64,000 nucleotides of DNA. It comes from a virus. Its lineage: Duplodnaviria > Caudoviricetes. Shown in pieces: positions 4,315 through 61,053 of the stretch. The notes beneath the pieces were generated by a model, which did not search any database, had not been told where the DNA came from, and saw only the letters and a list, made by a program, of their open reading frames with translations. The first letter of the stretch is position 1. Each line of letters opens with the position of its first letter. Position numbers and translations under genes: made by a program. Location of the stretch: IMG/VR virus record IMGVR_UViG_3300033121_001553, positions 122,820 to 186,819 of that record; one strand, given 5' to 3'.

Positions 4315-5169
4315 TAACTCGAATTTGATGCTAAACAACTTACAGAAACACGTAACGTCACTTGAATTTACATACAATTTTCCAACAATGTACGTTGACT
4401 TAGCAACCCTATACGCACTAAGCTTTTTTATTTTACCACCAGACACTTCAAAAAATTGAAATAGCAAACGCTTTTTTTCATCTTGGCTGAAGTATACTTT
4501 TTTTGTTGCAATGTCAGTACCATCAGTCATTAGCACATTTTTGTAAATTACACCTGTGCTTTTTTTTGTATCGCCATCTCTATATGTCGGTGGAAGATAA
4601 GAAAAATTCACAAGTTTCGCAAAACGTTTATCTTCTATCAATGTAGGTAGATCGTCGATAGACATACCATCGTACTTTGACTTTACGTCATCGTTGATCT
4701 TAAAAATCACTTTTTGATCAGATGTATTAAGATCATTTTCGCTTGAAAATTCATCATGCGTGTACAGCAGCTGAAGCTTTCTGAAAGCTTCAGCTGAAGA
4801 TTCTACGATATCGCCTACAATCGCTCCGAACGCTGCAGATGATGTAACGGGTGAGTAGACGCCATCTGACCCTGATAGTATCTCTCCGGACCTCACTGTG
4901 TACGAGTTAAGCGACTTGAATGGCTGCAAGCTTCCAAAGTCATCTGTCACGTATGTAATAAGATCGTGTGGTTGCGATGTCGACGCTTCAAGATGAGGAT
5001 AAGTCGTAGTATCAACTGTTCCGCTTACAAGATCTTTAGCGTACACAACATCAGCATCACTAAACGTAACGTAAGCTAGCTCCATAAGCCCTGATGCCAT
5101 CTGACGTCTTCCCTCGTCAGTAATAACGACATCCATCACTCTTGTCTTTGGATCTAGTATACCGCTCAC
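4315..5169 (-). CDS. conserved jumbo-phage virion protein
   Basis: GTG start at 5169 coupled to upstream TGA; N-terminus SGILDPKTRVMDVVITDEGRRQMASG resembles large-phage structural proteins (recalled, not searched); ends IKFE-TTA (standard stop 4309). Confidence 0.65.
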
Positions 5170-5435
5170 GATGTTTCTCTTTGGCTTATTATTGTTATTC
5201 CGGTAAGCGAGTGCCCAGAGTCTGGTGGACCTTCTGGATTCGTTGTTTGCCAATACTCGTGTTCACCGCCGGCAGTGTACCATCCACGCTTCAGATAAGT
5301 GACAGTTCGTGCAACTGATACATAAACTGTCACTGTTGACGTAAACGTAGGACGATCATTCTCAGAAAATGTTTGTATGTCTGATATGCCTGGTGTTACA
5401 GCTGATACGTCTGATGGTGTTTCTATTTGAGCCAT
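5166..5435 (-). CDS. hypothetical protein
   Basis: 89-aa ORF filling the gap, coupled to the next gene by GTGA overlap. Confidence 0.65.
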   Translation of the reverse strand: MAQIETPSDVSAVTPGISDIQTFSENDRPTFTSTVTVYVSVARTVTYLKRGWYTAGGEHEYWQTTNPEGPPDSGHSLTGITIISQRETS

Positions 5436-5447
5436 ATCATCTATGTA

Positions 5448-6654: not shown

Positions 6655-7773
6655 TAAATACGTAACATCAATCCATGCTCCGCGGCATGAAACGGATGAT
6701 GTGACAGATCCTGATATTGTTTTCCAAAGTCTCGCTTCAATAATTACTGAAGCTGTAATTGCGCTAAACACTGACGTTAGATCGGCCGATACATACGCCG
6801 TCGTCTGCGATGTTGATGTTAGTATCGAACTCTCTATTGTTCCAGGCGAACCGTACACATGTCCATAGACATCGTACAGATCAACAGCGACAGGCACTGG
6901 CGTTTCAGAAGTGTCTACTAGCGCTTTCCACGTATAGTTCGTAGCTGTTACATTGAACAACGATGGATTGTAGTGGAACGTTCCTATTGACTGCTTGCTA
7001 CCCGTAAGCGCTGTTGATGTTGTTGATACACCGCGTAGAATATCAAATGTCAACAACATTGGTTTCGATTGAACAGTTATCTGTCCATTCGATGCAGACG
7101 TTATATCTACGTTCTTCCCAGCGACAAGATAACTTAGTCCGCTAACAAGCCTTTGTAGTGAACCAGACAAGTTTGATGCATTCACTTGACCAGTAAACGT
7201 TGTTCCACTGACTGTTGCGACAACGTTATTGTCTATAGCAACATCGAAGTCAACGCCAGCGCCTGTATCTGTGAACTTGATACCCGTACCTTGCTGTATC
7301 GCTCTACTACCAGGAAGCGGAGAACCTTCGCTGTTAACAGTCAAATACGACGAAAATCTATCTGCATAAACAGAACCAGATATTTGAACTTGTCCATTCG
7401 ACGCTGTTGTTACAGCGACTCCACCAGTTCCTGCAAATGCAGTTTCGCCTGTTGATAGTCGTTGTAGCGAACCGGTTAGCTTTGGCGCTATGACTGGGCC
7501 AGTAAACGTAGTACCGCTAACAGTCGCAACAATATCGTCATCGATTGTAAGCGTATAGCTTCCGCCAGCCCCACCATCTGTAGCAGATATGCCTGTACCT
7601 GGTACGAACAGACGCTCATTCGTCAATGAAGCTGTAAGCGCAAGTACAAGGTACTGCGCTCCTGGATCACCGCCAGCCACGATAATACCTACTTCTTCCG
7701 TATTTATGACGACAGGCCTGGCCCTGAATGCGCCGTATACTTTCCTGAACCTTGTGTTGTCTCTTATAGACAT
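6655..7773 (-). CDS. tail-fibre-like protein with internal duplication
   Basis: Two copies of VATVSGTTFTG..L(T/S)GSLQRL..G......ASNGQ; ends WIDVTY-TTA (standard stop 6649). Confidence 0.65.
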
Positions 7774-7804: not shown

Positions 7805-9208
7805 TAAAAGTATTTTTGACGCCAAAGTAGCAAGCTGTGAACGCTCGCCCTTAATCAGCGTAACATGACCTGCGATATCGTAATCTTTGAATTTTTCAAT
7901 CGCGTAGCTTAGACCATTTGTATACATGTCAACGTGCGTATTGTCGATCTGCTCGATATCGCCTGTCAAAACTATCTTCGTGCCATCACCAACACGTGTC
8001 ACTATTGTCTTTAGCTCGTGCATCGAAAGATTCTGCGCTTCGTCTATGATTACGAACGATCCTGGAATAGATCTGCCACGTATGTAAGATATCGCTTGTA
8101 TCTCTATGATTCCACGCTCGTACATTGTGTTCAGATACGAATTTTCGAATACAGCCGTTTCGTTGCTGTTCTTGCTTGAACCGCGCTTTTTTGTTTTCGT
8201 TGATGTTTCACAGTCATTGTTGATCAAGAAATTAAGATTATCTCTTATGGGTGCCATCCATGGATCAAGCTTTTCTTCTATTGTACCAGGCAAAAAGCCA
8301 ATATCGGCTCCAACAGACTGCGTTGGTTTAGCGATGATAAGCTTCTTGTAGCGTTGCTTCTTTTGATCACCGAGTCCAGTAAGCTGCTCAAGTCCAGCTG
8401 CAAGCGCTATAAGCGTTTTACCGCAGCCTGCTTGCCCAAGCAACGTAACAAAACTGATTTTCGGATCTAGCAAGATATCAAAAGCAAAATTTTGCTCTTT
8501 ATTACGTGGTTTAAGTCCGTAAACGTTATTAACACTTTCGATAAACTTGAAACGCTCATCTGTGTATCTTGTGATCACTGACTTTAGCGTTCTGTCACCT
8601 TCAACACTTTTTATTACAGCAATCTCATTTGGATAAAATTTTATATCTACTGGTAGCGTATCTCTTGGTATGCTACCATTATTGTAGATCTCATCCACTA
8701 TGTGCTCTTCAACTTCAACAATTTTTACGCCTGTGTAAAGTCCACGCTTGTCGTCTGTAACGCGTATCTTTCTGTACTCTTCGCTTTGAATTCCAAGAGC
8801 ATCGCATTTGATACGTACATTTGTGTCATTTGATACGACAACGACATTTTCATGCGCATTCGACTTAAGCTTGTATGCTGTCAGAATGATAAGATTGTCG
8901 ATCTTACCATCCTTAATTTCTACTGGCACAGACGCGTATTGCGCCTCTTCTATATTCGGTGAAGAACATACACGTATGATGCCACCAGACTCTAGCTTGA
9001 TACCATCGAATAGTTTACCTTCCTTACGATAGTGATCAAGCTTACGCGAAATTTCTCTCGATGATTCACCAACTTCATCTTTTCTGCTTTTAAGCTTGTC
9101 TAGCTCTTCAATAACAGCCAGTGGTATTACAACTTCGTTATCATCAAACGAAGTTAGACAATTTGTATCGCTGATTAGAACGTTTGTATCAAGAACGTAT
9201 ATCTTCAT
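7805..9208 (-). CDS. phoH: PhoH-family ATPase with N-terminal PIN domain (PhoH2/YlaK type)
   Basis: PIN VLDTNVL..IEELDK; Walker A GQAGCGKT; YIRGRSI; IIDEAQN; LTGDIEQID; ends LASKIL-TTA (standard TAG 7793). Confidence 0.93.
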
Positions 9209-9245: not shown

Positions 9246-9515
9246 ATGAAAGAACGCAAGCACCTCAACATTATCGCACATGACAAAATTACAACATGTT
9301 ACGATACAATAAAGCAAAGAAATGAAAGCTGCAAAAATTCTAGCTGTAGCTACTGGGTTGAACATCAGCAAGGAAGAAATTGCGCAATTGTTATTGCTGA
9401 GTCTGGTTCAGCTATGACTCTTGCAGCTGTCGGTGAATTGTTCAATTTTAGTCGTATGAGAATCTGTCAACTTGAAAAATCTGCAATTCAGAAACTGAGC
9501 TCTATCATAAAGTAA
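9246..9515 (+). CDS. small sigma70 region-4-type HTH protein with Cys-rich N-terminus
   Basis: MTLAAVGELFNFSRMRICQLEKSAIQKL matches sigma70 r4 HTH; four Cys upstream; start ATG 9246. Confidence 0.75.
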   Translation: MKERKHLNIIAHDKITTCYDTIKQRNESCKNSSCSYWVEHQQGRNCAIVIAESGSAMTLAAVGELFNFSRMRICQLEKSAIQKLSSIIK

Positions 9516-9924
9516 CATTTTGATTCTTTGGTGGACGTCCTTTTCTTTTTGCAGTATGCGGAACTTCATCTTCTTTTACAGTAGTGACATGAGTAGTATC
9601 GTTTACTTCTTCTGACACGCTGATAACGATATCAGGTTTAATTTCTTCGACGACTAGTTGCCCTACCAAAGCTGCTGTAGATTGCACATCAAGCGTAATT
9701 TCTTCGACGACTAGTTGCTTTGCTACAGTTGCTGCTGTTGTAATTTCTTCAGCAACGACAACTTGTTCTGGCAGTTCTTGTTTTTGTTCTGCTGTCTCTA
9801 CGCTAGCTGCATCAGCTTGTACTTCGTTTTGAACCCTAAATGTTCCGTTGACGCCTATTGTTTTCCACGCTTTTTTTGGATTCAAACCCTTTTGCGCAAT
9901 ATCTCTTAGTATCGCTTTACGCAT
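9508..9924 (-). CDS. hypothetical protein with acidic repeats and C-terminal AT-hook-like motif
   Basis: KRKGRPPK near the C-terminus; QLVVEEI repeat; ends TTA-TGA-TAG. Confidence 0.65.
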
Positions 9925-9989: not shown

Positions 9990-10322
9990 TAACTTCGCTG
10001 TCTCTACAGCCTTAACTTCGCCGTCTTTACTGCCTTCTTCAGTCGCTGTCTCTACAGCCTTCTTCAGGCTCTTCTTTGCCTTACGCTCCGACTTAAGCTT
10101 CTTGTTATTCGCAAGAATCTCATCAGAGAAATTCTTGGCCTTCTTACGAAGATCTCTAAGCGATGCTCTTGCTTCAACGCCAGCCGAAACAACGCCAGCA
10201 TGATTCTTTGCGACATTATTTTGAAACTCAGTCGCTGTTGCTGCGCTCATGAGATCATTCAGCAGCGTTAGCAGCGAGGTGGCGACAGTAACTTCAACGG
10301 TTGTATTCTCTACATCAGACAT
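9990..10322 (-). CDS. histone H1-like (Hc1-type) nucleoid protein
   Basis: AGVEARASLRDLRKKAK resembles the Hc1 core, followed by a Lys-rich tail; ends at TTA just before the terminator (standard ORF reads through it to 9906). Confidence 0.6.
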
Positions 10323-11265: not shown

Positions 11266-11726
11266 TCTACAATCTCTTTTGTCGACTTATCAACAATTTT
11301 TAGCAAAGTTTTACCTATTACATGCAAAAGTTTTACGTTGACATCAGATTCGAATTTTTCTTTTGTTAGAACAACAACAGAACCCCATAGCTCATTTTCG
11401 AGTATGAATGATACCTGTTGCCACGTTGCAAGATCAACATCATACTTCTCAAGAATGCTTGCATATTTCTCGTTCATTGTTTGCTTGATATCATCAACTG
11501 TTATTGACGACTTCAAGTCTTCATTCGCTAGTATTTTAGATTTATTGATTTCTATAATTTTATGAACAATACCGCAATTATTGCATTGCGCGTATGACTG
11601 CTGTACGTTACCATCGTCATCTATTACTGAGAATACGGCGAACTGATGTGCTGGCGGTGACGACTTCCCAACGTACTGACGCATAACGCATCTACATTGA
11701 ACATGATGCTTTACACCTGATGGCAT
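11262..11726 (-). CDS. hypothetical protein, putative Zn-binding
   Basis: HHVQCRC and QCNNCGIVH motifs. Confidence 0.7.
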   Translation of the reverse strand: MPSGVKHHVQCRCVMRQYVGKSSPPAHQFAVFSVIDDDGNVQQSYAQCNNCGIVHKIIEINKSKILANEDLKSSITVDDIKQTMNEKYASILEKYDVDLATWQQVSFILENELWGSVVVLTKEKFESDVNVKLLHVIGKTLLKIVDKSTKEIVE

Positions 11727-11768
11727 GTTACAAATTTACGAAATACATTCGTATACGTTCAAAGAAAT

Positions 11769-12026
11769 TTACTTTTTTTTAGCTTGCTGTTGCGCAGCCT
11801 TCTTTTCTGCTGCAACCTGTTTCTGGTAGTGATTCACGGCTTTAGAAGATGTTTCATCAAGTGAAGCGTTAATCATCAAAAGTAGCTTCTGCAAATCATT
11901 TTTTGTCATTTTACTTTCATTGCTAAAAGCTTCTGAGACGCACTTAATCACTGCACGCCCTACGCCATCTTTCGCGCTCTCGAATGCATCTACAAACTGA
12001 CGTTCTACTGAGTTATTTTTTGCCAT
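11769..12026 (-). CDS. hypothetical protein
   Basis: 85-aa helical ORF in series with its neighbours. Confidence 0.7.
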   Translation of the reverse strand: MAKNNSVERQFVDAFESAKDGVGRAVIKCVSEAFSNESKMTKNDLQKLLLMINASLDETSSKAVNHYQKQVAAEKKAAQQQAKKK

Positions 12027-12070
12027 ACGTTATATGTAATCTTTGTTACGAGACAGTAAAGGTCGCATTG

Positions 12071-13138
12071 ATGAAAAACGCATCTAGTTTGCACGAAAGA
12101 TACAGCATGTCAAAACCTGTGACGCTTGCTGAACGACACAACGCTATTACGCTGATTGAAGCTATAGACAAGCAGAAAATTCAAATGATGAATTCTTCAC
12201 TTGCAAAACTTGAAACAGCAACAAAAAATGTAAAAAGCGATGAACTTACATCGCTTATCAACTTGTGTAGACAGCGAATGATGTCAACGATAAATTCACA
12301 AAAAGAATTTGGCAACGCGTACAATAGCACACTACGTGCCCTTGAAGTCGTAAAAGATCTAATGTCTAGTTACGTAGAAATCATAAAGCCAATCGTTCAA
12401 AAATTCCCAGACTCAGAAACTGTTGCTGCTGCTCTACAGTCGGCAGGACAATCGCCAGAACAGCTGACGCAGATGCTTACACAGGCATATCCGAAGTTCA
12501 GCGGTTTCAACGATGGTCCTGTTAGCAAAATAATGAATTTTCTTCGCGGTATTGGAAAAGATTCGCAGATCGAGACAGCAATACAATCGCTAACGAACGA
12601 TCTAGGCGGATTCGTAACGGGTCTCATGCAGCTAGGTCCACAAGATGCTGCAAATTTGCTAAAGGTCGCATCTGACGTTGAAACTGCTGCTGCTAGCGCT
12701 GCTTCTGGAGCTCAGCCGACTACACCTACAAATCCAACAGCATCAACTACGAGCGCAACAACAACAGCTGGAACAACTGGAACTGAACAGACTACTGGGG
12801 CAGCTCAGCAAACTGGTACCAGCGCTAGCGCTGCCCCAGCGTCTGCAGAAGCTCCCGCTGCGGGCGGTGGCGGTCAACAAACTTTGATGCAAAGATTCGC
12901 CGCTAGACAAGGTACGCAAGGACCAGCTGCTCCTGCTGCAGGCGGTGGTACAGCGCAACCAGCCGCAGCTGGTCCCGACAATCAAAAAATTTCTAGCATT
13001 GTTAAAATGCTGAATGATGGTAATGGCATTACTCCATCTACGCTTGGAATAGCGATCAACAGTGGCGCAACTGATGCAGAACTTGGTGCGGCTATTAAAG
13101 CTTACATTAAGGAAAAGGGAAGACAGAAGCGTCGCTTA
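12071..13138 (+). CDS. hypothetical protein with Ala/Thr/Gly/Gln low-complexity region (possible internal head protein)
   Basis: Start ATG 12071; first in-frame TTA at 13136-13138 (standard stop 13198 overlaps the convergent gene by 97 nt). Confidence 0.7.
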
Positions 13139-14091
13139 CGTAGTTCATTTGCAAGAACGCGTAGCCCTTTGTCTAGCTGGCCTCTTCTGTATATGTGAAG
13201 AGGTCCGCTTTTAATATCTATTTTTACACGTCTTGTTGACAAGTTGCGTATTCTTGATGTTAGGATCTCGTCTGTGCCATCGTTGCATTCACGTAGTCTG
13301 CTGATGAGTCTTGCAACAAGCTGTTTTGCATTACGTCTACAGTCGTAACTTGCAAATGTTACAGTTCCATCTGGTACCAAAATAACATCTTTGACAGCAA
13401 CAGCTGTCTCTGGATCCCAAGATGATACAAGCTGGCCTGTCGCAGCTGTTACTGGTTCAATTTTCGTAACCTCGCACAGATCATGTAGATCGTTCAATCG
13501 CAAAGCTTCTGGCAAAAATGTCATCGGATACACAAATGTTGTGCCACGAGCGTTATTAACATGGGCTGTCTGAAATACGTCTGGATGTATTGTGTGAGCA
13601 ACTATCACGACAGCGTCTCTTGTCGCGCTAGAATACTGGAATGCTCTATCGACTTCTGACACTGACTCTATCGCGCCGTCAACGATCAAAAATTTAGCTG
13701 ATGTTAGCGTTCGTTTTTCTTGCTGTGTACTAATGAATTTCAGCGTTAGCCCGTCAGCAACTGTGACCATGTCGCCCACCTTTGACTCGCCAACCTCAAA
13801 GATAGCGTGTAGACCACCCAGAGCCAATGCAGAAAAAAATAGATCGCTGACTGTGTCATCAACCTCATACTCTGCTTCAGAATTTTTTCCCGTTATATTC
13901 TGAAGCAGAGTGCCAGGGTGTAGCTGCTCAATTGAAAATGCATCAGCGATTTTCATTTTCCACTCGTTTGTGTCTTCGCTGAATGGACCTGTGAGAAGCA
14001 GAGCATTGTCTGCGGTGCGTATAGCACCGCGAGCGTAAATTCCGTTTGACTCACTGATAAGTTCGAGTGCAGTTTTTTTCTGTTCATTCAT
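13108..14091 (-). CDS. divergent GroEL/chaperonin-like protein (apical and intermediate region)
   Basis: LIVDGAIESVSEV..VVIVAH..VNNARG..LHDLCEVT..GQL..RIRNLS..KIDI aligns by eye with the GroEL apical domain; no GDGTTT motif. Confidence 0.65.
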
Positions 14092-17455: not shown

Positions 17456-18207
17456 AAAATAATAGATTTGTTTTTATTGCACCAATGTATAATGCGTCGA
17501 AAACGCTTCCACGTATGCTTCATTCGATATGTGGACAGTCGTACAGCAACTGGAAGCTTTTTCTTATTGATGACGTATCAAACGAAAACGAATGTCGAAA
17601 AATAGAAGCGATAATTGACTCTTTTGAAGATACGCTTATTACATGTAATGAAGAAATAAAAATTAACGTATACTGGAACGGTAAAAATGGACGTGGTAAG
17701 CAATGGGAAGTTTCAAATGTGCTGTACGGCGTATCGATGTGCGAAGACGATGACATCGTATGTAGAATAGACGCAGATGACTGGCTAACAGATCTGGACG
17801 CTCTTCACATCATAAATTACTTCTACAATGAGCTATCATGTGACACGTTGTGGACATCACATCGTTGGTCATACACAGATAAAAATATTTCTGCCCCAAT
17901 GCCAGATACAGCCGATCCATACAGCTATCCATGGGTAACAAGTCACCTAAAAACGTTCAGAAAGCATCTTCTGAATAGCGTAAATGACGTTAATTTTCGT
18001 GGACAAGACGGTAAATACATAAAAAGAGCAGGTGATCAAGCGATTTATCTGCCAGCATTGAAAAATTCAAAAAAACGTGTATATTTGCCAAGAGTAATGT
18101 ATCATTACACAATAGATGAACAAAATGGTGCTGTTTATCAAACAGATGACGCAAAATTTCAAAAAAGCGAAGCTGACTTCATAAGAGCCAGGGGATACGT
18201 CAAATGA
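17452..18207 (+). CDS. glycosyltransferase family 2
   Basis: IAPMYNA..LIDDVS..RIDADDWL. Confidence 0.9.
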   Translation: MKNNRFVFIAPMYNASKTLPRMLHSICGQSYSNWKLFLIDDVSNENECRKIEAIIDSFEDTLITCNEEIKINVYWNGKNGRGKQWEVSNVLYGVSMCEDDDIVCRIDADDWLTDLDALHIINYFYNELSCDTLWTSHRWSYTDKNISAPMPDTADPYSYPWVTSHLKTFRKHLLNSVNDVNFRGQDGKYIKRAGDQAIYLPALKNSKKRVYLPRVMYHYTIDEQNGAVYQTDDAKFQKSEADFIRARGYVK

Positions 18208-19124
18208 AAATTTACGTTCTTGCGCCAAAAGAAGATTGGATCTGTGATAGATTCGTAAAAGAGTGGTCGCAAGATAATACTGATATCACAACCGACAACA
18301 TTCATGATGCAGATATCATATGGCTGCTTGCTGACTGGTGCTGGAATCAAATCAGTCCACACATACTTAGATCGAAAATCGTCGTAGCGACAGTTCATCA
18401 TCTTGTTCCATCAAAGATGACATATCGAGCACGTAAAGAATTTGCTGAACGTGATGAATACATTGATCTATACCACGTACCGAATGTTCATACTAGACTT
18501 CAAATACTTGAGCTTACAGAAAAATCGAAATGCACAATTCCATTTTGGGCAAATCAAAAAATCTGGAAACGCACTAACGATAAAAAGACACTTAGAAAAA
18601 AGTATGGAATTGATGAAGATGCGTACATAGTCGGTTCATTTCAACGAGATACAGAAGGTAGCGATCTCGTAACTCCAAAATATGAAAAAGGTCCGGACCT
18701 GTTGGCTGACTATCTTGAGAAGATAAAGTCAGATAATCTTCATGTGCTTCTTAGCGGTTGGAGAAGGCAATACATCATAAAGCGCATCGAAGATGCGGGA
18801 ATAAACTACACATATATTCAGCTTCCACAGCAGCATGTGATCAATGAACTTTATCAAACGCTTGACCTGTATCCTGTCACTGCAAGATACGAAGGTGGAC
18901 CACAGTCACTTGTAGAATGCGGAATGCTTAATGTTCCTGTCGTATCAAGAGACGTAGGCATTGCAAGCGTTGTGCTGCCAAAAGAAGCAATTAACGATGA
19001 TGTTTCGCTTGCTACACCAGCCATACCAAATGTAGCTGAGCTTTTGCTTCCGCTTGGATACGACAAATTCAGAGAGATGTTTTACAATCTTTACTCAAGT
19101 ACTACACGATATGAAAAGATTTTA
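18204..19124 (+). CDS. glycosyltransferase family 4 (GT-B)
   Basis: EKGPD, RYEGGPQSLVECG..PVVSRDVG; first TTA at 19122-19124 (standard end 19268 overlaps the next gene by 158 nt). Confidence 0.85.
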
Positions 19125-19353
19125 TCTTCAAAGAGACGCAGATCACTCAGGCGTATCTGGCACCGGGAAAGTAGCAGAAGGCTGTCAGTTCGATACAAAG
19201 TGGTGTGCGTTGATATGGCTTACAGAGAAGTCATCCATGTGTTTCTACCCAGACATAGAAACGCTTGAGCATATTCATGGTCACAGCGGAAAAACAAAGA
19301 TTGTCTGGATAGATGATGAATCTTCTAACGTGGTGATTCAAAATGATAATTTA
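19111..19353 (+). CDS. conserved small phage protein
   Basis: RDADHSGVSGTGKVAEGCQF..HGHSGKTKIVW, a motif I recognise from phage hypothetical proteins; TTA 19351-19353 (standard TAG 19362). Confidence 0.75.
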
Positions 19354-31406: not shown

Positions 31407-31417
31407 TGAGTCTGATA

Positions 31418-36611: not shown

Positions 36612-36949
36612 ACGAAGAACAGATAACAGAACAGACGAAATCATTTGAAAAACTTCTCGAGGGCATCGAATCAATAAACGATAGAAAACGTCAGCTGTGG
36701 GTTGAAATATATAAGAATGCGCTTCAAGACAGAGTGAACGCATACGCAATGTACGTGCAACTTGCAAAAATAGTACGCGATGACTCACCAGAGCACGCAG
36801 TGCACGGTCAGAATATCGCAAGGTACATTGAACGTATGAGCAGAGCAAACGATCAGCTGACAAAACTCGCAGAGCTAATCGCAGAAGCAGAGAAAAAGTC
36901 AGAAGACATCGACGTTAGCCAGATATACAAGGATATGACGGACGACTTA
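36605..36949 (+). CDS. conserved hypothetical protein
   Basis: Helical ORF; TTA 36947-36949 overlaps the next ATG (standard TAG 36970). Confidence 0.72.
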
Positions 36950-52822: not shown

Positions 52823-53271
52823 TTACGAAAAGTTCAACGACTGGTTCACCATTCGCTTACGTTCTTGATCAGAACGGTAACATCGTAATCATAGCAGCGA
52901 TGTCAAATTTTCAAGTTGGCATTGATGGACGACCACAAGAATTTTACACAAATGGACGTGTTGTATCGAATTCGAGGCGTATTGGATCGTCGAGCGAAAC
53001 TCAATACGAAATTTACGAATACGACTATGTTGTTGCATTCGTCTCTGGAAGCCAACTTGGAGTTACAGCTTCGCTACCAAGAAATGCAAAAACGGGTCAA
53101 TGGCTCATTATTTACGATGCAGATGGCGTCGCAAACAACAGAGGGATCAACATAGTTGATCCCCAAGGTACCCGAATCTCGGGTGGGACTGAGGCTACGA
53201 TTAGCTCAAGTTACGGTTCAATGACGTTGTACAGAGATATCAACTCTTGGATCGTCATAAACGGCCGATAA
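52819..53271 (+). CDS. small tail-associated protein
   Basis: LP..G..LIIYD..I.G..YGSMTL..W pattern seen in fibre-associated modules. Confidence 0.6.
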   Translation: MITKSSTTGSPFAYVLDQNGNIVIIAAMSNFQVGIDGRPQEFYTNGRVVSNSRRIGSSSETQYEIYEYDYVVAFVSGSQLGVTASLPRNAKTGQWLIIYDADGVANNRGINIVDPQGTRISGGTEATISSSYGSMTLYRDINSWIVINGR

Positions 53272-53608
53272 TACGTTCGCTTGTTATGTTACAGTACTGT
53301 TTGATATCTTGATCAAACAACTGTGGACATATATAACCAACGCGTTTCGTATCATCACTTGCACGTTGCATCTCTACTTTTCGTAGCTCAAAGAATGATC
53401 CGCTTTTGTAGATCCACACTGACTCTAGCCACTCAAGCCGTATCTGCTCACCTGGATAGAGCGCGTATGAATCATCATACAAAACGATATAGTCATCATA
53501 GATCGTTTTGTTTGCCATCTCTACGGTGGCAGTATCGCTTGTTTTCCAAAAACCGAAGTTAATGCCCTCTTCGTACCCAACAGAATGCGAAATTGTCCAG
53601 ATCTTCAT
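53258..53608 (-). CDS. hypothetical protein
   Basis: Start ATG 53608 in a TTATG overlap; ends TTA-TGA. Confidence 0.65.
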
Positions 53609-53829
53609 AAGATTACTTTCGGGTAAACAACACCGCAAATGGCACACTTTATTTTTGACTCTTCGCCGTCAATTTTTCTGATCACAAGATTTGAAACCGA
53701 CATCAGTTTACACCGACAGCCGTAAAGCAAAGCATATGATGCGATATCATAGATTTTGTTTAGTTTGTCTTGATTGTCTCCGCATGATGCGATGACGTTC
53801 AACAATGGAGTAATTTTTTCTTCGTTCAA
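53608..53829 (-). CDS. small Cys-containing hypothetical protein
   Basis: CRC and CAIC; ends TTA-TGA. Confidence 0.6.
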
Positions 53830-54164
53830 TTCAAATCTTTCTTGCTTTTTTGCGCAACAACTACCTGTGAGAGCGGTGTTACGACGCCCATCTTTGATAG
53901 TATCGTACCCATCTTCACTATCTTACGAACGTCAGCTGCTGACTTCATCTCTGTCAAATTCGCAGTGCCTTTCGCTATAACAAGTTCGGCAGCATGTCTG
54001 TCACAAACATTGTATTTTTCACCTGGCGGTACTTCGTATACATGTGTACAAAATTCGTTGCATGTATCGCTACCACTGCATTTTGGCGCGTAGTCAACGA
54101 TGATATTCATCATCGTTTTCACGACTGACTCTAGTATTTTTCCGTAATTGATCTTTTTTTGCAT
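53826..54164 (-). CDS. hypothetical protein
   Basis: 112-aa ORF with Cys/His cluster. Confidence 0.62.
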   Translation of the reverse strand: MQKKINYGKILESVVKTMMNIIVDYAPKCSGSDTCNEFCTHVYEVPPGEKYNVCDRHAAELVIAKGTANLTEMKSAADVRKIVKMGTILSKMGVVTPLSQVVVAQKSKKDLN

Positions 54165-54348
54165 TTGAATACAAATCCGACGCCCATCCGCCTCCTTTTA
54201 GTATAAACGGTGACGGGCCAGATATCAATCTTTTTGCTGTTTCATTTTTGCAGGATGGACAAATCTTTACAGCATCAGATCCGAATTTTTGTTCCATCAT
54301 GTACTGCGCACCGCAGCTATCGCATGAGTACTCGTAGTTAACATTCAT
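54145..54348 (-). CDS. FmdB-family zinc-ribbon protein
   Basis: YEYSCDSCG..CPSC..RLIS..FILKGGGW; TTA 54145-54147 (standard end 54094). Confidence 0.85.
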
Positions 54349-54677
54349 ATTATTTCTCCAAGCGCAAGCAACGCGTTTATGACTCTTTTACGTTCTTTTT
54401 TTATGTCACCGCCAGCTGACGTGATCCTGAATTCATAAGCTGTGTCATTCAGTGTTTCTTGTTCGTATCGCAGCAACTGAACTTTTGTTGGTTGACACGT
54501 TGATTTTCTGTACTCACGTATCATTACGCTTCCAACGTAGATACGTGGTGTGTATTCAACGGTGTAGAAGATCGGATTTTCTTCAACGATCATTCTCATA
54601 TCTGCGGGTTTGGTGCACATGCTATCATCGTCTTCGCAGTTGCCCATGATGCTTGATACAAAACCCCAGCCAATCAT
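54345..54677 (-). CDS. hypothetical protein
   Basis: ATGA-coupled ORF. Confidence 0.62.
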   Translation of the reverse strand: MIGWGFVSSIMGNCEDDDSMCTKPADMRMIVEENPIFYTVEYTPRIYVGSVMIREYRKSTCQPTKVQLLRYEQETLNDTAYEFRITSAGGDIKKERKRVINALLALGEII

Positions 54678-54865
54678 TGTATCGTGCTCACAATCTCGAA
54701 CTCACGTTCGTTTATGACCTCTACGCCGTTGACGCCAACGCATAGAGTTGAAATATTGTACGGATGTATAACAACGTAGTACATATCGTTGTAGTAGACG
54801 ATAGTGCCGCAATGATTATTTCTGACGTATTTCGTGCACATTTTATTTTTTTGTTTGAAAGTCAT
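54674..54865 (-). CDS. hypothetical protein
   Basis: Short coupled ORF. Confidence 0.5.
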   Translation of the reverse strand: MTFKQKNKMCTKYVRNNHCGTIVYYNDMYYVVIHPYNISTLCVGVNGVEVINEREFEIVSTIQ

Positions 54866-54998
54866 TTTTGACAAAGAAGGACAAAATAAATGTGAATGTG
54901 AACAGAACTGCCGCCATTCCGTAACGTTGCGTTACAGCTTCGTGTATGCCAACAATAAGCGTAAAGATAAAAGAGCCAAGTGTTACGTATTTTATCAT
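54843..54998 (-). CDS. small membrane protein (51 aa)
   Basis: Below track cutoff; MIKYVTLGSFIFTLIVG..AAVLFTFTFILSFFV; ATGA-coupled. Confidence 0.55.
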   Translation of the reverse strand: MIKYVTLGSFIFTLIVGIHEAVTQRYGMAAVLFTFTFILSFFVKNDFQTKK

Positions 54999-55381
54999 GT
55001 TTTTATCAACGGAAATTTTCTCGATACAAGATAAGCATCAGTATCGGTTACGAGAGCATTATAGCTACCTTCATCTGACTGAATTACTGCTAGTCCCTTG
55101 TCTGTTTCAACGATGTCTACTTTCGTCATGACGCATTGCTGTATCGGCGCCAAAGACGTCTGCTCGTCTTTGAAAGTTGACTGCTTCGCTTCATCAAATG
55201 TTTTATACGAGCCAATATAGTCAGAACCCATTCCATGACCCCTCCAGCTGGTCCAGAATTTATTATTCTCAACTATCCAGTAGGAGATACTACCGTTATT
55301 TCTAATATAACCTGTGCATCCACACGAGCATTTTGTAAACGTACGCTTCTTCTGCCAAAGCTTATACGCCGATCTTTTCAC
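54995..55381 (-). CDS. hypothetical protein
   Basis: 128-aa coupled ORF. Confidence 0.62.
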   Translation of the reverse strand: MKRSAYKLWQKKRTFTKCSCGCTGYIRNNGSISYWIVENNKFWTSWRGHGMGSDYIGSYKTFDEAKQSTFKDEQTSLAPIQQCVMTKVDIVETDKGLAVIQSDEGSYNALVTDTDAYLVSRKFPLIKT

Positions 55382-55725
55382 GATTCCTCTGCAACGATGT
55401 ACCTAAAAAATGCTTTTGCTCTTGGATCAATGTTCTGTCTTGATAGCATCTCATCAGCTGCGTTAACAAATTCTTCTATCAGAAATTCGTCAGGTTTTAC
55501 GACCCAGTCGTTCATAATTGTGCACCAGCACGAGTACTGCGTTCCTGCTGATCGATGAACATGCAATACTGATGCAAACAATGCTCTTTCGTTGTTTTGC
55601 AACGAAACATTTTTTGCTTCATTTACACCAGTTTCCCATGCTTGAATATCGAATACGTAGACAACGTTGCCGTAGCACGCAACAATTTTGTTTCCAAAGA
55701 TAGCTTCACTCATCTTTGAAATCAT
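55378..55725 (-). CDS. hypothetical protein
   Basis: 115-aa coupled ORF. Confidence 0.62.
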   Translation of the reverse strand: MISKMSEAIFGNKIVACYGNVVYVFDIQAWETGVNEAKNVSLQNNERALFASVLHVHRSAGTQYSCWCTIMNDWVVKPDEFLIEEFVNAADEMLSRQNIDPRAKAFFRYIVAEES

Positions 55726-55942
55726 ACGCTTCTATCTCTTCTTGTATCAACAAAATCAGCTCATCGACTGAAACTGACTCGTGTTTGCTACGTTCTATTG
55801 CAGCTATTTGAGCTTTCGCTCCACCTTCGCTTGAATTGCACGATGAGTGATGTTTACCGTGCTTATCTACGTACGACACAACATGCGTGCCATGCGTACC
55901 ATCTGACTTTTTACACTTACGTTTACGTACTTTGTACGGCAT
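55706..55942 (-). CDS. small basic protein with C-terminal LIQEEI motif
   Basis: MPYKVRKRKCKK..AKAQIAAIE. Confidence 0.68.
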   Translation of the reverse strand: MPYKVRKRKCKKSDGTHGTHVVSYVDKHGKHHSSCNSSEGGAKAQIAAIERSKHESVSVDELILLIQEEIEAYDFKDE

Positions 55943-55953
55943 ATCGACATAAA

Positions 55954-56184
55954 TAAGTCGATACCGTGTTTGAGAAAAACGTGATAGTCGGTGATGTATT
56001 CTTCTTTCAAATGTTCCTCAATACTGGTTTCATCACGTTCGATAGACAAAACAAGCACAGTTCTACGTGGCGTATGCTTTTCATAAAGATTTGCAATGCA
56101 TACATTGATCCTAACGCCTATTCCTCCGCTGAACGCGATAGCAACAGCATCACCAACTTCTTTACAGATCGTACGTATGGCCAT
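55954..56184 (-). CDS. hypothetical protein
   Basis: TTA 55954-55956 removes a 76-nt overlap (standard end 55867). Confidence 0.58.
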
Positions 56185-56223
56185 GATTTATCATACCACG
56201 GCCACGAGGCGGATTGCACAGTC

Positions 56224-56844
56224 TAAAATAAGACCTTTACGTTTCATGTAGTCTTTTGCTTGTGAGTCAGACTTACCCATAGCCCTCAACGCTTTGTAAG
56301 TCGCTGCTGCTTGTGACTCCTCAGAGCTTTCTGGGTTGTAGCTGGTTCTACCCTGCTGCTGACGGTCGAAAATCGACTGCGCTGACTCGATGGCTTCCAA
56401 AGTCGGTTCAGAAGCGAGACGTGAAGAACCGTGCATGGTCATCTGAACGTTTGTCTTAAGCTTCTGCACGTCTGCAACAAGTTTTTTGATCTGAGCAATT
56501 GTTTGATCATCACTTTTATCACGTGCACGCTCTGCTTGAGATCTTGCAAACTGTAGCAGCTGTGTATACGTTTGATCAATGCTCTGAAGGATGCCTTGTT
56601 TCTGCTCTTCGTCTTTCTTCATGTAGTAAGCATTCGTCAGCTGCTTAACTCTTTGGAGCGTCTGTTGTTTTGCTGACTCAAATGCTTTTACTTCGTTAGA
56701 TTTTACGAATCGTTGTTTTACAGCAGAACCCATGCTAGACAGTGTGTCAAAAAAACCTTCGTCGAGCAGTTCTTCTTCAAATGCGGTTGTTTCAATCAAA
56801 AAGCGCAATTCACCGCGTGTAAGCTTAATCGTTTCGTTTTTCAC
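56224..56844 (-). CDS. hypothetical protein (IKLTRGELRFLIE, possible internal head protein)
   Basis: GTG start; TTA 56224-56226 (standard end 56191). Confidence 0.7.
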
Positions 56845-56885
56845 GAAATGTAATTATACACGCCATTAAACAACAATGGACGCGT

Positions 56886-57068
56886 TTAGCGTCCAAGCAT
56901 CAATGAAAAATTTACTGTTGGTGTGTCTGTCATGGATGAAATTGCAACAACAGCGTAGCTATCAGCAATAATTTCTTCATCTCGTATTTCAAGATTCGAG
57001 ATGCCCATGACACGTTGTTTTAGTCGTTCAAACTCTGACTTATTTTGACAAGTAACTCTATATTTCAC
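56886..57068 (-). CDS. hypothetical protein
   Basis: GTG start just downstream of tRNA-Ser. Confidence 0.45.
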   Translation of the reverse strand: MKYRVTCQNKSEFERLKQRVMGISNLEIRDEEIIADSYAVVAISSMTDTPTVNFSLMLGR

Positions 57069-57070
57069 TT

Positions 57071-57160
57071 TGGAGGAAGCGGTGGGATTCGAACCCACGG
57101 ACGGCTTTCACCGCCTACTGTTTTCAAGACAGTTCAAATAATCCACTCTTGCACGCTTCC
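57071..57160 (-). tRNA. tRNA-Ser(TGA)
   Basis: ACTGT-CT TGA AA-ACAGT, long variable arm, encoded CCA. Confidence 0.92.
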
Positions 57161-57164
57161 AGAG

Positions 57165-57237
57165 TCGTGAGTAAGGGGATCGAACCCTTCTATGCTTGTT
57201 TGTAAGACAAGTGACGTCACCAGACGACAAACTCACG
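57165..57237 (-). tRNA. tRNA-Val(TAC)
   Basis: CTTGT-CT TAC AA-ACAAG; acceptor CGTGAGT/ACTCACG. Confidence 0.88.
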
Positions 57238-57240
57238 TTA

Positions 57241-57314
57241 CGCTTGTAGGGGGATTCGAACCCTCCCGGCAGTTGATTGACAATCAACCGGCCCCACCAG
57301 GAGCCTGTACAAGC
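57241..57314 (-). tRNA. tRNA-Asp(GTC)
   Basis: GTTGA-TT GTC AA-TCAAC; G73. Confidence 0.9.
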
Positions 57315-57327
57315 ATCTTGCATGATA

Positions 57328-57356
57328 ACTATACATTATCATGCGTCAGTGTACAA
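57328..57356 (-). promoter_or_regulatory. sigma70-like promoter for the tRNA trio
   Basis: TTGTAC-17 nt-TATAGT, 13 nt upstream of tRNA-Asp; the -10 lies inside a 9-bp inverted repeat. Confidence 0.55.
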
Positions 57357-57357
57357 A

Positions 57358-58170
57358 TTAAAATCTAAAAACGCACTGTTTCTTGCATTTCATAATTTTG
57401 TCTATTCTTTTCTTGCTAGCAGCAAGCGTAAGTTGCTTTCCATTTTTTGAATAGAATCTGAATGGACTATTCCTGCGCACAAAAATCGCTTCTAGAAATT
57501 CCCTGTACGCATCATTTGAAATTACAAAATCGTGTTTATCAAATGAAATAGTCGTTGTATCACTATCGTTATGAACTGTAGCAGATATTGTTTTGAATTC
57601 TTCATTTAGTAGTTTGTCATTTGTTATAAACAAACAATTATGAAAAACATTTACAAAAATCTTACATGCATTTTCATCGTAAAAAGTAATCAGCTTTGAT
57701 GCATAACATACTCCATATTCGCGCCTATCGTCATATTCCTGAACGTACGTAGGTTCGATCGCATCAGCGTCTTTAACAGCGTCCACATTCTTGTAACTGA
57801 AGAAAATAACGCCATACGTAGTTATCTTTGTAAATGTATCAGCAGCCGAATTGTCTACGCTTACATTCTTACTACGCAAGAATAGCTTACGAATAAACGT
57901 TTCGTAGTTCTCCGCTGAGAGATACGTTATTTTACACACGTCGTCTTCAAATTTGAAGATTATTTTGTATATGCCATCGTCTTCGTAACAAATAACAATT
58001 GCATTGAATTCAGCAGGTTTAGTATTCTTATTCTCATCTATGAAACGAACATACGAACTGTTGTTTTTGAACAAAATTACAATATGCTTATGAACAAATT
58101 TAGTTGCTGATGATTTGCTGTTGAGCAGTACTGTTAGCATAGCTCTCTCGTGGAACGTTTGGATAAACAT
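57358..58170 (-). CDS. hypothetical protein
   Basis: 270-aa AT-rich ORF; none of its 14 Leu codons is TTA. Confidence 0.7.
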   Translation of the reverse strand: MFIQTFHERAMLTVLLNSKSSATKFVHKHIVILFKNNSSYVRFIDENKNTKPAEFNAIVICYEDDGIYKIIFKFEDDVCKITYLSAENYETFIRKLFLRSKNVSVDNSAADTFTKITTYGVIFFSYKNVDAVKDADAIEPTYVQEYDDRREYGVCYASKLITFYDENACKIFVNVFHNCLFITNDKLLNEEFKTISATVHNDSDTTTISFDKHDFVISNDAYREFLEAIFVRRNSPFRFYSKNGKQLTLAASKKRIDKIMKCKKQCVFRF

Positions 58171-58192
58171 TTTCTTTTCCGCTCTTGGTTGC

Positions 58193-58786
58193 TAACGCAT
58201 TAGTCGCTGTTTCAGCGAAACCGAAACAAACTTTGATATCTTCGTCAAGATGATTTATAACTTTTTTCGCAGTAAGCTTTGTACCATCTACTGTGTCAAC
58301 TACGAAAAGTGGATTTTTGGGTCCAAAGAGTCGAATAATCAGATTTTTCAGTCCTGTTCTTGTTACGATAATAGTTTTTGATGTAACATTTTCGATGAAA
58401 CAAACTTTGTATTTTTCTATATCATAATTTTCGATCGTAATATGCGTAAAAAAGAAGGCATATAGATCATCGCTTGATGAAATTGCATATTCATAGCTGT
58501 GTCTTTTGTACTGTTGTGCTAGTATCGTATATCTTTTTTTATCGAAGCTAAAAAAATCAATTCCTACGTCATGATCGATATCGTTGACATCAACAGCGTA
58601 GTGCACGCTATGCTCTGCTTTATCGCTGATGTCAGCTTTGACACTATTATGTTCTTGTTCTTGTTTGTCGTGAAAAACAACAGCAGCCTTTAGCTGCTCA
58701 ACAACTTTTTTGTTACCGCGTCTACCAAGAGCGTAAATCGTATCAATAAAAAGCTCATACGGAATTGAAACTGACTGTTCATTCAT
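58193..58786 (-). CDS. hypothetical protein
   Basis: TTA 58193-58195 removes a 71-nt overlap (standard end 58100). Confidence 0.7.
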
Positions 58787-59594
58787 CTTCTTTTTCCTCG
58801 CTTACGCTGTCTGGTGCTGTTAGAGCTATTTCGATTTGCTTCATTATCGTTTCGATGTATTTTTCTTCTTTTTCGAATACGATAAATTTTCTTTTAAGCT
58901 TAATTGCAGCTGCTGCTGTTGTTCCAGAACCAGCGAATGGATCAATGACCCAGTCGCCTGGCTGCGTATGAACTTCTATTGGTATCTCTACAACACGTTG
59001 CTTTTTTTGCGTCGGGTGAACTTTACCACGAAAAATTTCGTTTACATCTGTCCAAACATTAGTGCGTCTGTACTTTTCGCTTTTTGCCGGATACTTTGAG
59101 TTGTAACCTGCGTAACCACGTACAGCTTCAAGGTACGGTATATTAAAACACAATGGTTTTTTTGCATCACCGTTGATGAACATCGCGAGTTCTTCACGCG
59201 TGAACAGATAGTTGTTATCGACTCCGTAGCCTCTCTTCTTCGACCAGGTGATGAGGTTGGCAAGCTGAAGTTTCGTTCGATGTTCAACTTTCGTTATGTA
59301 CTTGAAGAATGGTCTGAACTGTGGCTTCCCGATGCCGCCCCAGACGTAGAATGCGCCGCCCGGCTTAAGTGCACGAAGCCACTTTTCTGTCCACTCCACC
59401 ATCCACTCAGAGAAATCTTCGTCGTTACTGTGGGTGTTATCCCAGTCTTCGTTTACCGTTTTACCGTACGGCGGATCTGTAACGATTAGCGGAACAGCAC
59501 CATCTGTGATCTGAAGCGCTGCGTCAACAGCGGCACTTCGTGTTGAATCGCCATGAATTACGTAACCGTGATCATCGATATCGATGATATTCAT
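58779..59594 (-). CDS. DNA methyltransferase, N4-C/N6-A beta class
   Basis: TDPPY, HPTQK, DPFAGSGTT; start ATG 59594. Confidence 0.93.
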   Translation of the reverse strand: MNIIDIDDHGYVIHGDSTRSAAVDAALQITDGAVPLIVTDPPYGKTVNEDWDNTHSNDEDFSEWMVEWTEKWLRALKPGGAFYVWGGIGKPQFRPFFKYITKVEHRTKLQLANLITWSKKRGYGVDNNYLFTREELAMFINGDAKKPLCFNIPYLEAVRGYAGYNSKYPAKSEKYRRTNVWTDVNEIFRGKVHPTQKKQRVVEIPIEVHTQPGDWVIDPFAGSGTTAAAAIKLKRKFIVFEKEEKYIETIMKQIEIALTAPDSVSEEKEDE

Positions 59595-60436
59595 TTTGTG
59601 CTCCCGTAAATGTGAACACATTCTCGCATTGTGTTATCGTGGATCTCAAGAACCTTTGGAATCGAGCCATCACGTTCTGTCTGATATCCGCCAGCAAGAT
59701 CCCACGCGATTGGAACGCCTGCTTTCTTCGCTGCCTTAAAAACGATTTCGTCCCTTCTACGCAGCTGCATTGTTGTAAGAAAGCCACCGTACGGATCATC
59801 AACGTGTGGATCAGCACCAGCTTGGTAAAGAATAACATCGCTGTCTGACATCCACTCAAGTCTTGATTCTAGTTCATTGAAAAACTCTTGCGCTTGACTT
59901 GGTTCCGTGTATTTTTTACCAGCCGTGAAATGCTTTACAAACGTAACATTTCGCTTACGGATGATATCATCAGTACCATTTCCGTAGTGCATATCAAGAT
60001 CGAGAATCGCTACGTTCTTGACACCATCAGCTGCGAGTGCAAGCGCGGCAACCATGAGACCATTGAATGTGCAAAAGCCTTCAGATGAAGCAAATCCCGC
60101 GTGATGAAATCCAGAAACTGGTGCAGCAGCGACGCTCTTTGTTTTAATAGCATGACGTGCAGCAGAAAGCATCGCACCTGATGTATACTTCAACGAAGCA
60201 GCGACTTGCGGTGACTTGTTACCAAACCCATTTTCAATGTTGCACGACAGAACACCATCGACAAAGTCACGTTCATGTGCTCTGTACAGTTCATCGTTTG
60301 TAACAGGAACAGGTTCGATGATCTCTATTGGGAACTGCTTGTTCCATGAGTCAACAACTTTTGCTGGTTTTGCTGCGCTAGGCGATATACTTCGTGAGTC
60401 AGCTACCATAAGCGGTGTGTAAAAAACAGGAATCAT
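59591..60436 (-). CDS. histone deacetylase-family (Zn-dependent amidohydrolase)
   Basis: GFHHA..GFCTFN..DLDMHYGNGT..QAGADPH..AGGY. Confidence 0.93.
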   Translation of the reverse strand: MIPVFYTPLMVADSRSISPSAAKPAKVVDSWNKQFPIEIIEPVPVTNDELYRAHERDFVDGVLSCNIENGFGNKSPQVAASLKYTSGAMLSAARHAIKTKSVAAAPVSGFHHAGFASSEGFCTFNGLMVAALALAADGVKNVAILDLDMHYGNGTDDIIRKRNVTFVKHFTAGKKYTEPSQAQEFFNELESRLEWMSDSDVILYQAGADPHVDDPYGGFLTTMQLRRRDEIVFKAAKKAGVPIAWDLAGGYQTERDGSIPKVLEIHDNTMRECVHIYGSTK

Positions 60437-61053
60437 TCTTTTTTTCCTTCAACTGTTACACGTAGCTGTTTTGTGAGCACAATTGGTTCGCCTGTAATAA
60501 GCGTACAACTGCTCCAGTCACGATGTTCATCCAAGAATTCATCTACAGCTGTTTTCACACCGTGCTTCGTTGTTTCTACTCGCGCAGTCACGTCAGCAAC
60601 AGCAGCATGCGTATCACGTTCAGCGTACCACAAATCGCGTTCAGCCCAACGTCCGCTGTAGTCGTCAACGACAACGAATGAATACTCATGCGTAAGTTTA
60701 TCTATAAGCTCAAGCTCGCGCTTCACTGTGTAGTAGTTGTGATCACCGTCCAACAGAACAATATCGTACTTTTCGCCAGCTTCAACGCTTGCTGGTAGCA
60801 CATTCAAACTGTTATTATTGATGATGCGTACATTCTGATCTTTTTCGTAGTTGATGTTACCAAGTACGACGCTGATATGATCTTGTATCTTTACGTCTAT
60901 TCCGGTAAAACCAAACTTTTTACCGCTACGTACGAGATCAAAAACAAGCGGAAATAGCGTTGCACCTGTGTCAATACCAACTTCAAGTATATTTGGTGCA
61001 TCGATATGCGTTATAAGTTGTTTAACAATCGGTATGTAACCGTGATAGCTCAA
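60433..61053 (-). CDS. class I SAM methyltransferase (Methyltransf_24-like)
   Basis: LEVGIDTG, LLDGDHNYYTV, VDDY, GVKTAVDEF. Confidence 0.87.
   Translation of the reverse strand: MSYHGYIPIVKQLITHIDAPNILEVGIDTGATLFPLVFDLVRSGKKFGFTGIDVKIQDHISVVLGNINYEKDQNVRIINNNSLNVLPASVEAGEKYDIVLLDGDHNYYTVKRELELIDKLTHEYSFVVVDDYSGRWAERDLWYAERDTHAAVADVTARVETTKHGVKTAVDEFLDEHRDWSSCTLITGEPIVLTKQLRVTVEGKKE

Follow-up and report, generated by a model that had tools for sequence, protein, structure and literature searches.

The use of UUA as a stop codon has been described in organelles. In labyrinthulean mitochondria it is tied to a release factor of the RF2 type in which Ser204 is changed to Ala, Gly or Cys (PMC12574857). 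In the plastids of the green-coloured dinoflagellates (peDinoflagellates) UUA and UCA are both stops, for which a modified RF2 has been proposed (PLoS Genet 2025, PMC12574857), and the same paper terms this plastid case the first sense-to-stop change outside mitochondria. The mitochondria of Marsupiomonadales and Pseudoscourfieldia use UUA and UUG as stops by way of an altered mtRF1a (PMC12574857). In organelles generally, UUA-only stops go with changes at RF2 Ser204, and RF1-type changes produce UUA and UUG stops together (PMC12574857). In the open literature we found UUA as a stop only in mitochondria and, since 2025, in plastids; no phage or bacterial case was found, which agrees with a first-pass annotation of the DNA studied here. 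This DNA is a window of 64,000 nucleotides (nt), namely bases 122,820-186,819 of the 186,819-bp IMG/VR virus record IMGVR_UViG_3300033121_001553, from a large tailed phage. Comparison of its genes with those of relatives shows that UUA is not used as a sense codon in this phage, and marks gene ends under selection. The preferred reading, to which we assign a probability of about 0.88, is that UUA is no longer leucine (Leu) and ends translation together with UGA and UAA, in about 31% of genes, the reader being most likely an RF2-type factor. The first-pass annotation had proposed this same stop set, TGA, TAA and TTA, and the proposal is supported by gene interiors free of TTA, by homologues that end at TTA, and by the lack of constraint on the sequence that follows.

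The record has a completeness of 52% (CheckV), and the counts called genome-wide here cover its sequenced 186,819 bp, with genes called by a crude in-house caller. TTA is not rare as a trinucleotide, there being 962 and 1,001 copies on the two strands. Within the open reading frames (ORFs) of at least 250 codons in the window, there is no in-frame TTA among 10,832 interior codons, against 274 and 133 (407 in total) in the other two frames; the same interiors contain 224 CTA, 265 ATA and 261 GTA. The absence of TTA that had been reported for the gene bodies read codon by codon holds for these long ORFs of the window, and the record as a whole has effectively none: 15 of 35,703 interior codons are in-frame TTA, and the other frames contain 865 and 383. 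Those of the 15 that were traced are antisense shadow ORFs or three same-frame gene junctions. The GC content is 42%, so the absence of TTA is not attributable to base composition.

The ends of genes look quite different. When TTA is counted as a stop, the first stop in the 155 genes of at least 120 codons in the record is TGA in 75, TTA in 52, TAA in 26 and TAG in 2, and the crude caller gives TGA 39, TTA 22, TAA 13 and TAG 3 for the window. The genes ending in TTA include those for the major capsid protein, the scaffold and the sheath. CGG serves as a control: it is comparably rare, yet it has 39 in-frame copies distributed evenly along gene bodies. TTA is therefore confined to gene ends and not just rare; the pattern is positional. 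Two related codons keep their usual meaning. TTG has 493 interior copies genome-wide and aligns to Leu in relatives, which implies that UUG remains a Leu codon, and TCA is a common Ser codon with 865 interior copies.

The layout of the genes points the same way. Among 66 TTA-ended genes, overlaps of at least 30 nt drop from 23 to 2 when each gene is stopped at TTA and not at the next standard stop, and the summed overlap drops from 4,905 to 254 nt, so that the claim that stopping at TTA removes or shrinks overlaps is borne out. After TTA, the next gene most often starts with a one-base overlap, TTATG, comparable to TAATG. All 24 TTA ends listed for the window in the first-pass annotation are in frame, on the strand implied, and preceded by 53-612 open codons.

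Homologous proteins provide an independent view of where these genes end. Several relatives (L008 and L009, both with 69% capsid identity, and L011, L021 and L022, all with 56% gp6 identity) use TTA freely within genes. In such standard-code relatives the capsid, the scaffold and the products of 17690-18328 and 11606-12028 (genome coordinates) finish with the residue that immediately precedes the TTA of this phage. The match is also exact for PhoH (TTA at 7805) and for 36605-36949, gp6 ends within one residue of the TTA at 42363, and for the glycosyltransferase, gp6 and others the homologue ends 1-5 residues from TTA. Whole families agree, where the database homologue genes are standard-code calls. 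A C-terminus of the ..LAS-x-IL type is found in 118 of 120 PhoH homologues, and 102 of 108 scored gp6-like homologues end 2-3 residues past ..IVG[KR]; the C-termini that the first-pass annotation expected for these two families were thus correct. The five gp6 homologues that are truly longer (at least 12 residues past the motif) carry L at the family end point. Similarly, 115 of 120 database homologues of the capsid end in ..MN[IV]I, and all 5 exceptions continue with L.

Several apparent fusions are resolved as well. A seeming scaffold-capsid fusion of 1,127 amino acids splits at TTA, as do fusions of a CN-hydrolase and of a metallophosphoesterase with the gene that follows each, and the parts match separate Pfam domains or separate relatives. 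No Pfam domain spans a TTA in the roughly 50 proteins scanned, and homologue conservation stops at, or within residues of, the TTA; the first-pass annotation had named a TTA inside a conserved domain, or conservation running past it, as what would speak against its proposal. Conversely, 43 of the 75 TTA codons in standard-code relatives align to a Leu of this phage, which is always written there as CTN or TTG. In conserved Leu columns the relatives have TTA in 43 of 652, this phage in 0 of 652.

A near-relative strain, 92-94% identical and obtained independently from eight ENA assemblies and two Logan runs, allows the selection on these codons to be followed. Its contigs include ones of 208 kb and 114 kb, and over 44.6 kb of the window its DNA is 92.7% identical. 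In 13,822 aligned codons, substitutions amount to 2.4, 1.4 and 17.9% at codon positions 1, 2 and 3, and neither strain has an in-frame TTA. There are 207 synonymous Leu swaps, in which the comparable transitions CTA-CTG (56) and CTG-TTG (50) are well represented, and none involves TTA. At gene ends, all 15 TTA codons covered by the strain are kept. The tails, meaning the sequence from TTA to the next standard stop, have only 2 of 147 changes at third positions (binomial P 1.4e-10 against the rate in gene bodies), and are therefore not coding in that frame; where a tail does show periodicity, it fits the frame of another gene. We also observe that the near relative (L010/L014), which uses TTA as a stop, and a standard-code sister of 322 kb (L021) co-occur in one ENA assembly, ERZ27282920.

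The trait is not limited to these two strains. Using a scan of IMG/VR and the signature of an L-initiated tail, four further TTA-stop lineages were found in other samples: L023, L109/L110 (a 277-kb contig, ERZ4208449 NODE_9), L111 (a 166-kb Logan contig of SRR21686407) and L112. They have GC contents of 38-47%, and 0-5 in-frame TTA against 73-311 off-frame. Orthologous genes whose ends align within 8 residues exchange TTA with the other stops, the pairs being TTA-TTA 10, TTA-TGA 5, TGA-TTA 4, TAA-TTA 3 and TTA-TAA 1; they include the window genes PhoH, 33163-34428, 36605-36949, 36949-38391 and 40059-40526. Because the trait is common to a strain diverged by 7% and to at least four further lineages, the sequences indicate that it is heritable and old. 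A capsid tree of loci of known status groups this phage with L023 as a clade (SH-aLRT 99). The lineages may or may not share a single origin: in a capsid tree of 125 rows, those with the TTA signature need at least four changes, but the signature is visible only if the capsid gene ends in TTA, and is blind to members in which TGA or TAA stands there.

Individual sites in the window illustrate the different kinds of evidence. At the left, on the minus strand, the TTA at 4315-4317 ends gene 4318-5169 after 315 open codons, has a TGA one codon further on, and is the same in the 92.7% relative; that at 6655-6657 ends gene 6658-7773 after 372 open codons and is also kept. The PIN-PhoH gene 7808-9208 (minus) ends with the TTA at 7805-7807, exactly where the standard-code proteins of L021 and L022 finish in ..LAS[KR]IL, and the TTA-stop relative L110 has TGA at the identical position. 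The TTA at 9508-9510 (minus), which ends gene 9511-9924, is in frame, is followed immediately by TGA, and is kept in the near relative. For the Hc1-like gene 9993-10322 (minus) the TTA at 9990-9992 lies 18 nt upstream of a terminator hairpin with U-tract (-33.9 kcal/mol, z -6.3), which a standard-code reading would cross into the next gene; that this ORF ends before its terminator was a further point of the first-pass annotation that stands. Two convergent genes, 13111-14091 (minus; TTA at 13108-13110, 357 open codons before it) and 11984-13135 (plus; TTA at 13136-13138), have their overlap reduced from 97 to 31 nt, and both TTA codons are kept in the near relative.

In the central part of the window, the TTA at 19122-19124 (plus) ends the glycosyltransferase gene 18204-19121, giving a protein of 306 residues (354 in the standard code); the orthologue in the TTA-stop phage L023 has 301 residues and ends in TAA, and the substitutions in the tail after 19122 sit at third positions of another frame. 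The small gene at about 19054-19350 (plus) is ended by the TTA at 19351-19353 after 105 open codons, and comparison with the near relative gives its frame the substitution pattern of coding sequence. This site and 32102, discussed below, were extra sites of the first-pass annotation, and both hold up. The TTA at 20715-20717 (minus) ends the CHAP-like gene 20718-21464 and shortens a convergent overlap from 91 to 7 nt. The methyltransferase gene 27625-28233 (plus) ends in frame at the TTA at 28234-28236, which has a TGA one codon after it and is kept in L104. At 30318-30320 (minus), the end of gene 30321-30689, an overlap falls from 93 to 3 nt; at 31111-31113 (plus), the end of the basic ORF 30802-31110, the overlap with the following PTH2-like gene falls from 157 to 22 nt. 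Both are kept in the near relative, as is the TTA at 31404-31406 (plus), which ends that PTH2-like gene (31092-31403), is followed by TGA, and lies 11 nt before a tRNA gene with the anticodon CUA. The TTA at 36947-36949 (plus) ends gene 36605-36946 and overlaps the next ATG as TTATG; the orthologue in L011 has an equal number of residues after the last aligned block, and that in L111 has TGA there. The gp6-like baseplate gene 40536-42362 (plus) ends with the TTA at 42363-42365, and L111 has TTA at the same place.

The remaining sites, all on the minus strand, lie to the right. The TTA at 53258-53260 ends gene 53261-53608 in frame, with TGA next, and that at 53608-53610 ends gene 53611-53829 with a TTATG overlap (gap -1) to the next start. 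Ending gene 54148-54348 at 54145-54147 shortens an overlap from 71 to 20 nt, and overlaps of 76 and 71 nt become gaps of 11 and 22 nt when genes 55957-56184 and 58196-58786 are ended at 55954-55956 and 58193-58195. Between these two, the TTA at 56224-56226 ends gene 56227-56844 after 208 open codons. With the NT5C-like gene 61040-61603 ended at 61037-61039, an overlap of 32 nt shrinks to 17 nt; of the 188 residues of its product, 6-184 fall within the Pfam NT5C match.

As to how UUA could end translation, we propose that it is read by an RF2-type release factor in which the second base is relaxed, so that U-[G/A/U]-A would be recognised. An RF2-type reader is preferred to an RF1-type one because all the working stops end in A and UUG stays Leu. 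The factor would come from the host, or from a gene in the part of the phage genome that lies outside the record, and the infected cell would contain no active tRNA-Leu(UAA) to compete with it. Leu is written solely as CUN and UUG. Several points weigh against this proposal. The lack of a competing tRNA-Leu(UAA) in the host is an assumption, and no usable lead to the host emerged. No release factor is present in the sequenced 52% of the genome. The RF2 pattern [A/G]PFD..RRHTSF, with Ala or Gly for the serine of SPF, has no match in IMG/VR, and in 185,579 species genomes it has 2 irrelevant ones, one a broken copy in Rodentibacter and the other in a Pseudomonas isolate. With no release factor in the sequenced half and these scans nearly empty, an RF2 change of the organelle type has no support here. 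Further, 7 of the 24 window sites (53258-61037) are supported by layout alone, as relatives did not cover them, and 6 nt past the TTA at 32102 the same frame becomes coding again, from a weak GTG start.

Other candidates for the agent were also considered. An 18-bit PCRF match proved spurious, lying inside the portal gene, and a scan of metagenomes with the last gene of the contig, aiming past the contig end, gave no relative. A short RF1-type factor occurs in two relatives, G001 (L193:1453-2398) and G003 (L194:1453-2076), where it consists of the end of PCRF and an RF-1 domain with GGQ, the codon-reading tripeptide being PPT or PPN. Both carriers read TTA as Leu (G001 has one TTA within its 5'-3' exonuclease domain, and G003, like the standard-code relative G010, carries tRNA-Leu(UAA)), so that the trait does not go with possession of the short factor. 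Sequence like the N-terminus of a release factor is encoded by an ORF upstream of the G001 gene, in a different frame, and the gene apparently starts there. The G003 gene lies within a 20-kb stretch of 32 tRNA genes, and the corresponding 20 kb of G001 contain 26; the tRNA array of G001 also includes, according to ARAGORN, a tRNA-like gene of 96 nt whose anticodon has four bases (gttc), at L197:15523-15618. The Pseudomonas isolate matched by the RF2 pattern, Pseudomonas sp. 286 (L108:932-970, UTBG01000116.1), has GPF where SPF is otherwise invariant, and the neighbouring genes still keep a few in-frame TTA codons.

Where the altered code would come from can be seen in two ways. The phage may infect an unrecognised bacterial lineage that itself uses UUA as a stop. 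Alternatively, and we consider this an unlikely though not a negligible possibility, the phage imposes the code on a standard-code host as a shut-off weapon, with the factor encoded in the unsequenced half. It would make UUA terminate, or remove tRNA-Leu(UAA), so that host mRNAs containing UUA would be truncated, and the tRNA with anticodon CUA would let translation continue past the UAG stops of the host. Phage genes have no internal UUA and almost no UAG, and would therefore be immune.

This tRNA(CUA), which would read UAG, is encoded at 31418-31489 (plus) and was identified by ARAGORN and Rfam (62 bits); it is kept in near relatives. UAG is almost out of use in this phage: TAG ends at most about four credible genes, and each of them has TTA or TAA within the next 0-3 codons. 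No credible in-frame TAG or TGA flanked by coding sequence was found in the record, the matches being antisense shadows or gene junctions. A link between the tRNA(CUA) and the code change is suggestive only. A comparison with other phage tRNAs as its possible origin gave no close match. In the TTA-stop lineage L111 a non-homologous tRNA(CUA) (L111:1084-1159, 41 of 76 positions identical) occupies a syntenic place upstream of a PD-(D/E)XK nuclease gene, and the standard-code gene call of L111 runs through it. We also note that the gene of about 82 residues at 32111-32359 is one of the very few ending in TAG and shares 32 nt with the next gene; should TAG be read by the tRNA(CUA), the product of this gene would be 18 residues longer.

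A different explanation dispenses with a release factor. UUA could be an unassigned, 'hungry' codon, at which the ribosome stalls and is then rescued, or at which peptidyl-tRNA drops off and is hydrolysed, perhaps by a PTH2-like enzyme. A PTH2-family gene does stand beside the tRNA(CUA) (PF01981, E 9e-12, residues 4-90 of 104), the basic ORF, this gene and the tRNA forming a row at 30802-31489 that is kept in near relatives. The absence of a release-factor gene from the sequenced half also speaks for this explanation, as does that of any tRNA-Leu among its 12 phage tRNAs. However, the capsid, scaffold and sheath, which are needed in hundreds of copies, end in TTA, and stalling followed by rescue is slow; tmRNA would moreover mark the products for degradation. 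A backup stop within one codon is also no more frequent after TTA (10 of 52) than after TGA (22 of 75) or TAA (10 of 26). Small PTH2-like proteins are general in phages and are absent from the retrieved parts of the other TTA-stop lineages, so that PTH2 was also rejected as a marker of the trait. We therefore regard a hungry codon as improbable.

More doubtful still is a dual meaning, in which TTA usually stops translation and is read through at some sites to give extended or fused products. The site in favour is 32102-32104 (plus), where the TTA ends the Zn-ribbon gene 31946-32101 and a second same-frame gene follows (GTG start, 32111-32359). Substitutions of the coding type are found in both halves, so the conservation continues in frame after two codons, past the weak GTG start. 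Nevertheless, the proteins homologous to the first half stand alone, with 54 and 71 residues, the second half matches a different protein, and no homologue spans both except in the standard-code gene call of the near relatives. Because the homologues of the two halves are separate proteins, the sequences identify 32102 as a gene junction with a weak GTG start, though some read-through may occur there. The other tails show no in-frame coding constraint.

That TTA is still Leu, kept extremely rare by codon bias and found at gene ends by chance or as a by-product of AT-rich junctions, we consider hardly credible. Very rare codons do exist here, such as CGG with 17 interior copies, and in the GC-rich relatives TTA is rare yet sense, as its presence in the exonuclease of G001 illustrates. 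Against this, the other NTA codons are abundant at a GC content of 42%; CGG is spread evenly and TTA is never internal; relatives end exactly at TTA; and neither the non-coding tails nor the 207 Leu swaps without TTA would be expected. Nothing speaks for an artefact (of assembly, base-calling or base modification) or for an altered record, and such a cause is just as hard to credit, since the same pattern is present in the independent assemblies of the 92-94% strain and in four divergent lineages, and an error process would be blind to reading frame on both strands.

The phage itself has a virion of the T4 type. The record encodes a Gp23 major capsid protein (PF07068, E 2e-78) and a scaffold, and Portal_T4, Peptidase_S77, gp13, gp15, sheath and GPW_gp25 are syntenic in relatives, as are the gp6/gp25-like baseplate genes, portal and sheath of the record, which places it among the T4-like myophages with a gp23-type capsid. 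Further genes encode DnaE, the PIN-PhoH protein, ClpP and a long sugar-modification cluster. The closest cultured phage has a capsid identity of only 37%, and uncultured metagenomic relatives number thousands (roughly 8,000 for the family in public data), with contigs up to about 357 kb. The sugar or surface-modification cluster, of about 20 kb, lies at 14664-36611 in the window between the replication and baseplate modules, and includes several GT2 and GT4 glycosyltransferases, a UDP-galactopyranose mutase, a carbamoyltransferase, a radical SAM enzyme, a UDP-glucose dehydrogenase and several methyltransferases. At 58779-62216 there are genes for an N6/N4 DNA methylase, a histone-deacetylase-fold protein, a Methyltransf_24 protein, an NT5C-type 5'-nucleotidase and an MT-A70 methyltransferase, and after these nucleotide and DNA-modification genes the contig ends in an array of 11 tRNAs. 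It is worth adding that codons ending in CC or GG are strongly avoided genome-wide (interior TCC 57, CCC 71, ACC 98, CGG 17, AGG 91), and that CTA is unusually frequent as a Leu codon (550).

To our knowledge, published code changes in bacteria and phages are all stop-to-sense or amino acid swaps, and sense-to-stop changes are limited to organelles with few genes. Here a sense-to-stop change would affect hundreds of genes that are translated by bacterial machinery, and it recurs in several lineages of a large and widespread uncultured phage family. One practical consequence is that gene callers using table 11 mis-annotate about one-third of the proteins in phages of this kind, with C-terminal tails, fusions (such as scaffold with capsid) and long overlaps that are not real, and wrong protein forms are already in the public protein databases. 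These phages also offer a natural system for studying how a release factor or another agent is retargeted to a sense codon, a question that bears on genome recoding and on phage-host conflict.

Of the known codes, NCBI table 23 (Thraustochytrium and labyrinthulean mitochondria) is the same in that UUA changes from Leu to stop, UUG remains Leu, and UUA stands at the ends of homologous genes. It differs in belonging to an organelle that has a few dozen genes and takes its factor from the nuclear genome, whereas this is a tailed phage of about 360 kb that uses bacterial translation; nor has an altered RF2 been found here, UAG is nearly abandoned, and a tRNA(CUA) is present. The peDinoflagellate plastids share a sense-to-stop change that closes a large part of the genes and was inferred from codons confined to the termini of coding sequences, but UCA is also a stop there, and TCA is a common Ser codon here. 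In Marsupiomonadales and Pseudoscourfieldia the same change of UUA from Leu to stop is made by an RF1-type reader, under which UUG also becomes a stop; in this phage UUG is a normal Leu codon, which argues for a reader of the RF2 type. Among phages, stop codons are recoded in Lak, crAss-like and other gut phages (TAG to Gln, TGA to Trp). These have in common with the present phage a non-standard code and a phage-borne, suppressor-type tRNA(CUA), but their change is from stop to sense, whereas here no gene is interrupted by TAG or TGA and the tRNA(CUA) is almost without a target in the sequenced half. Finally, the near-absence of TTA from genes recalls Streptomyces, where TTA depends on the single tRNA bldA and is still Leu in genomes of 72% GC; the present phage has 42% GC, and in it TTA marks the ends of genes.

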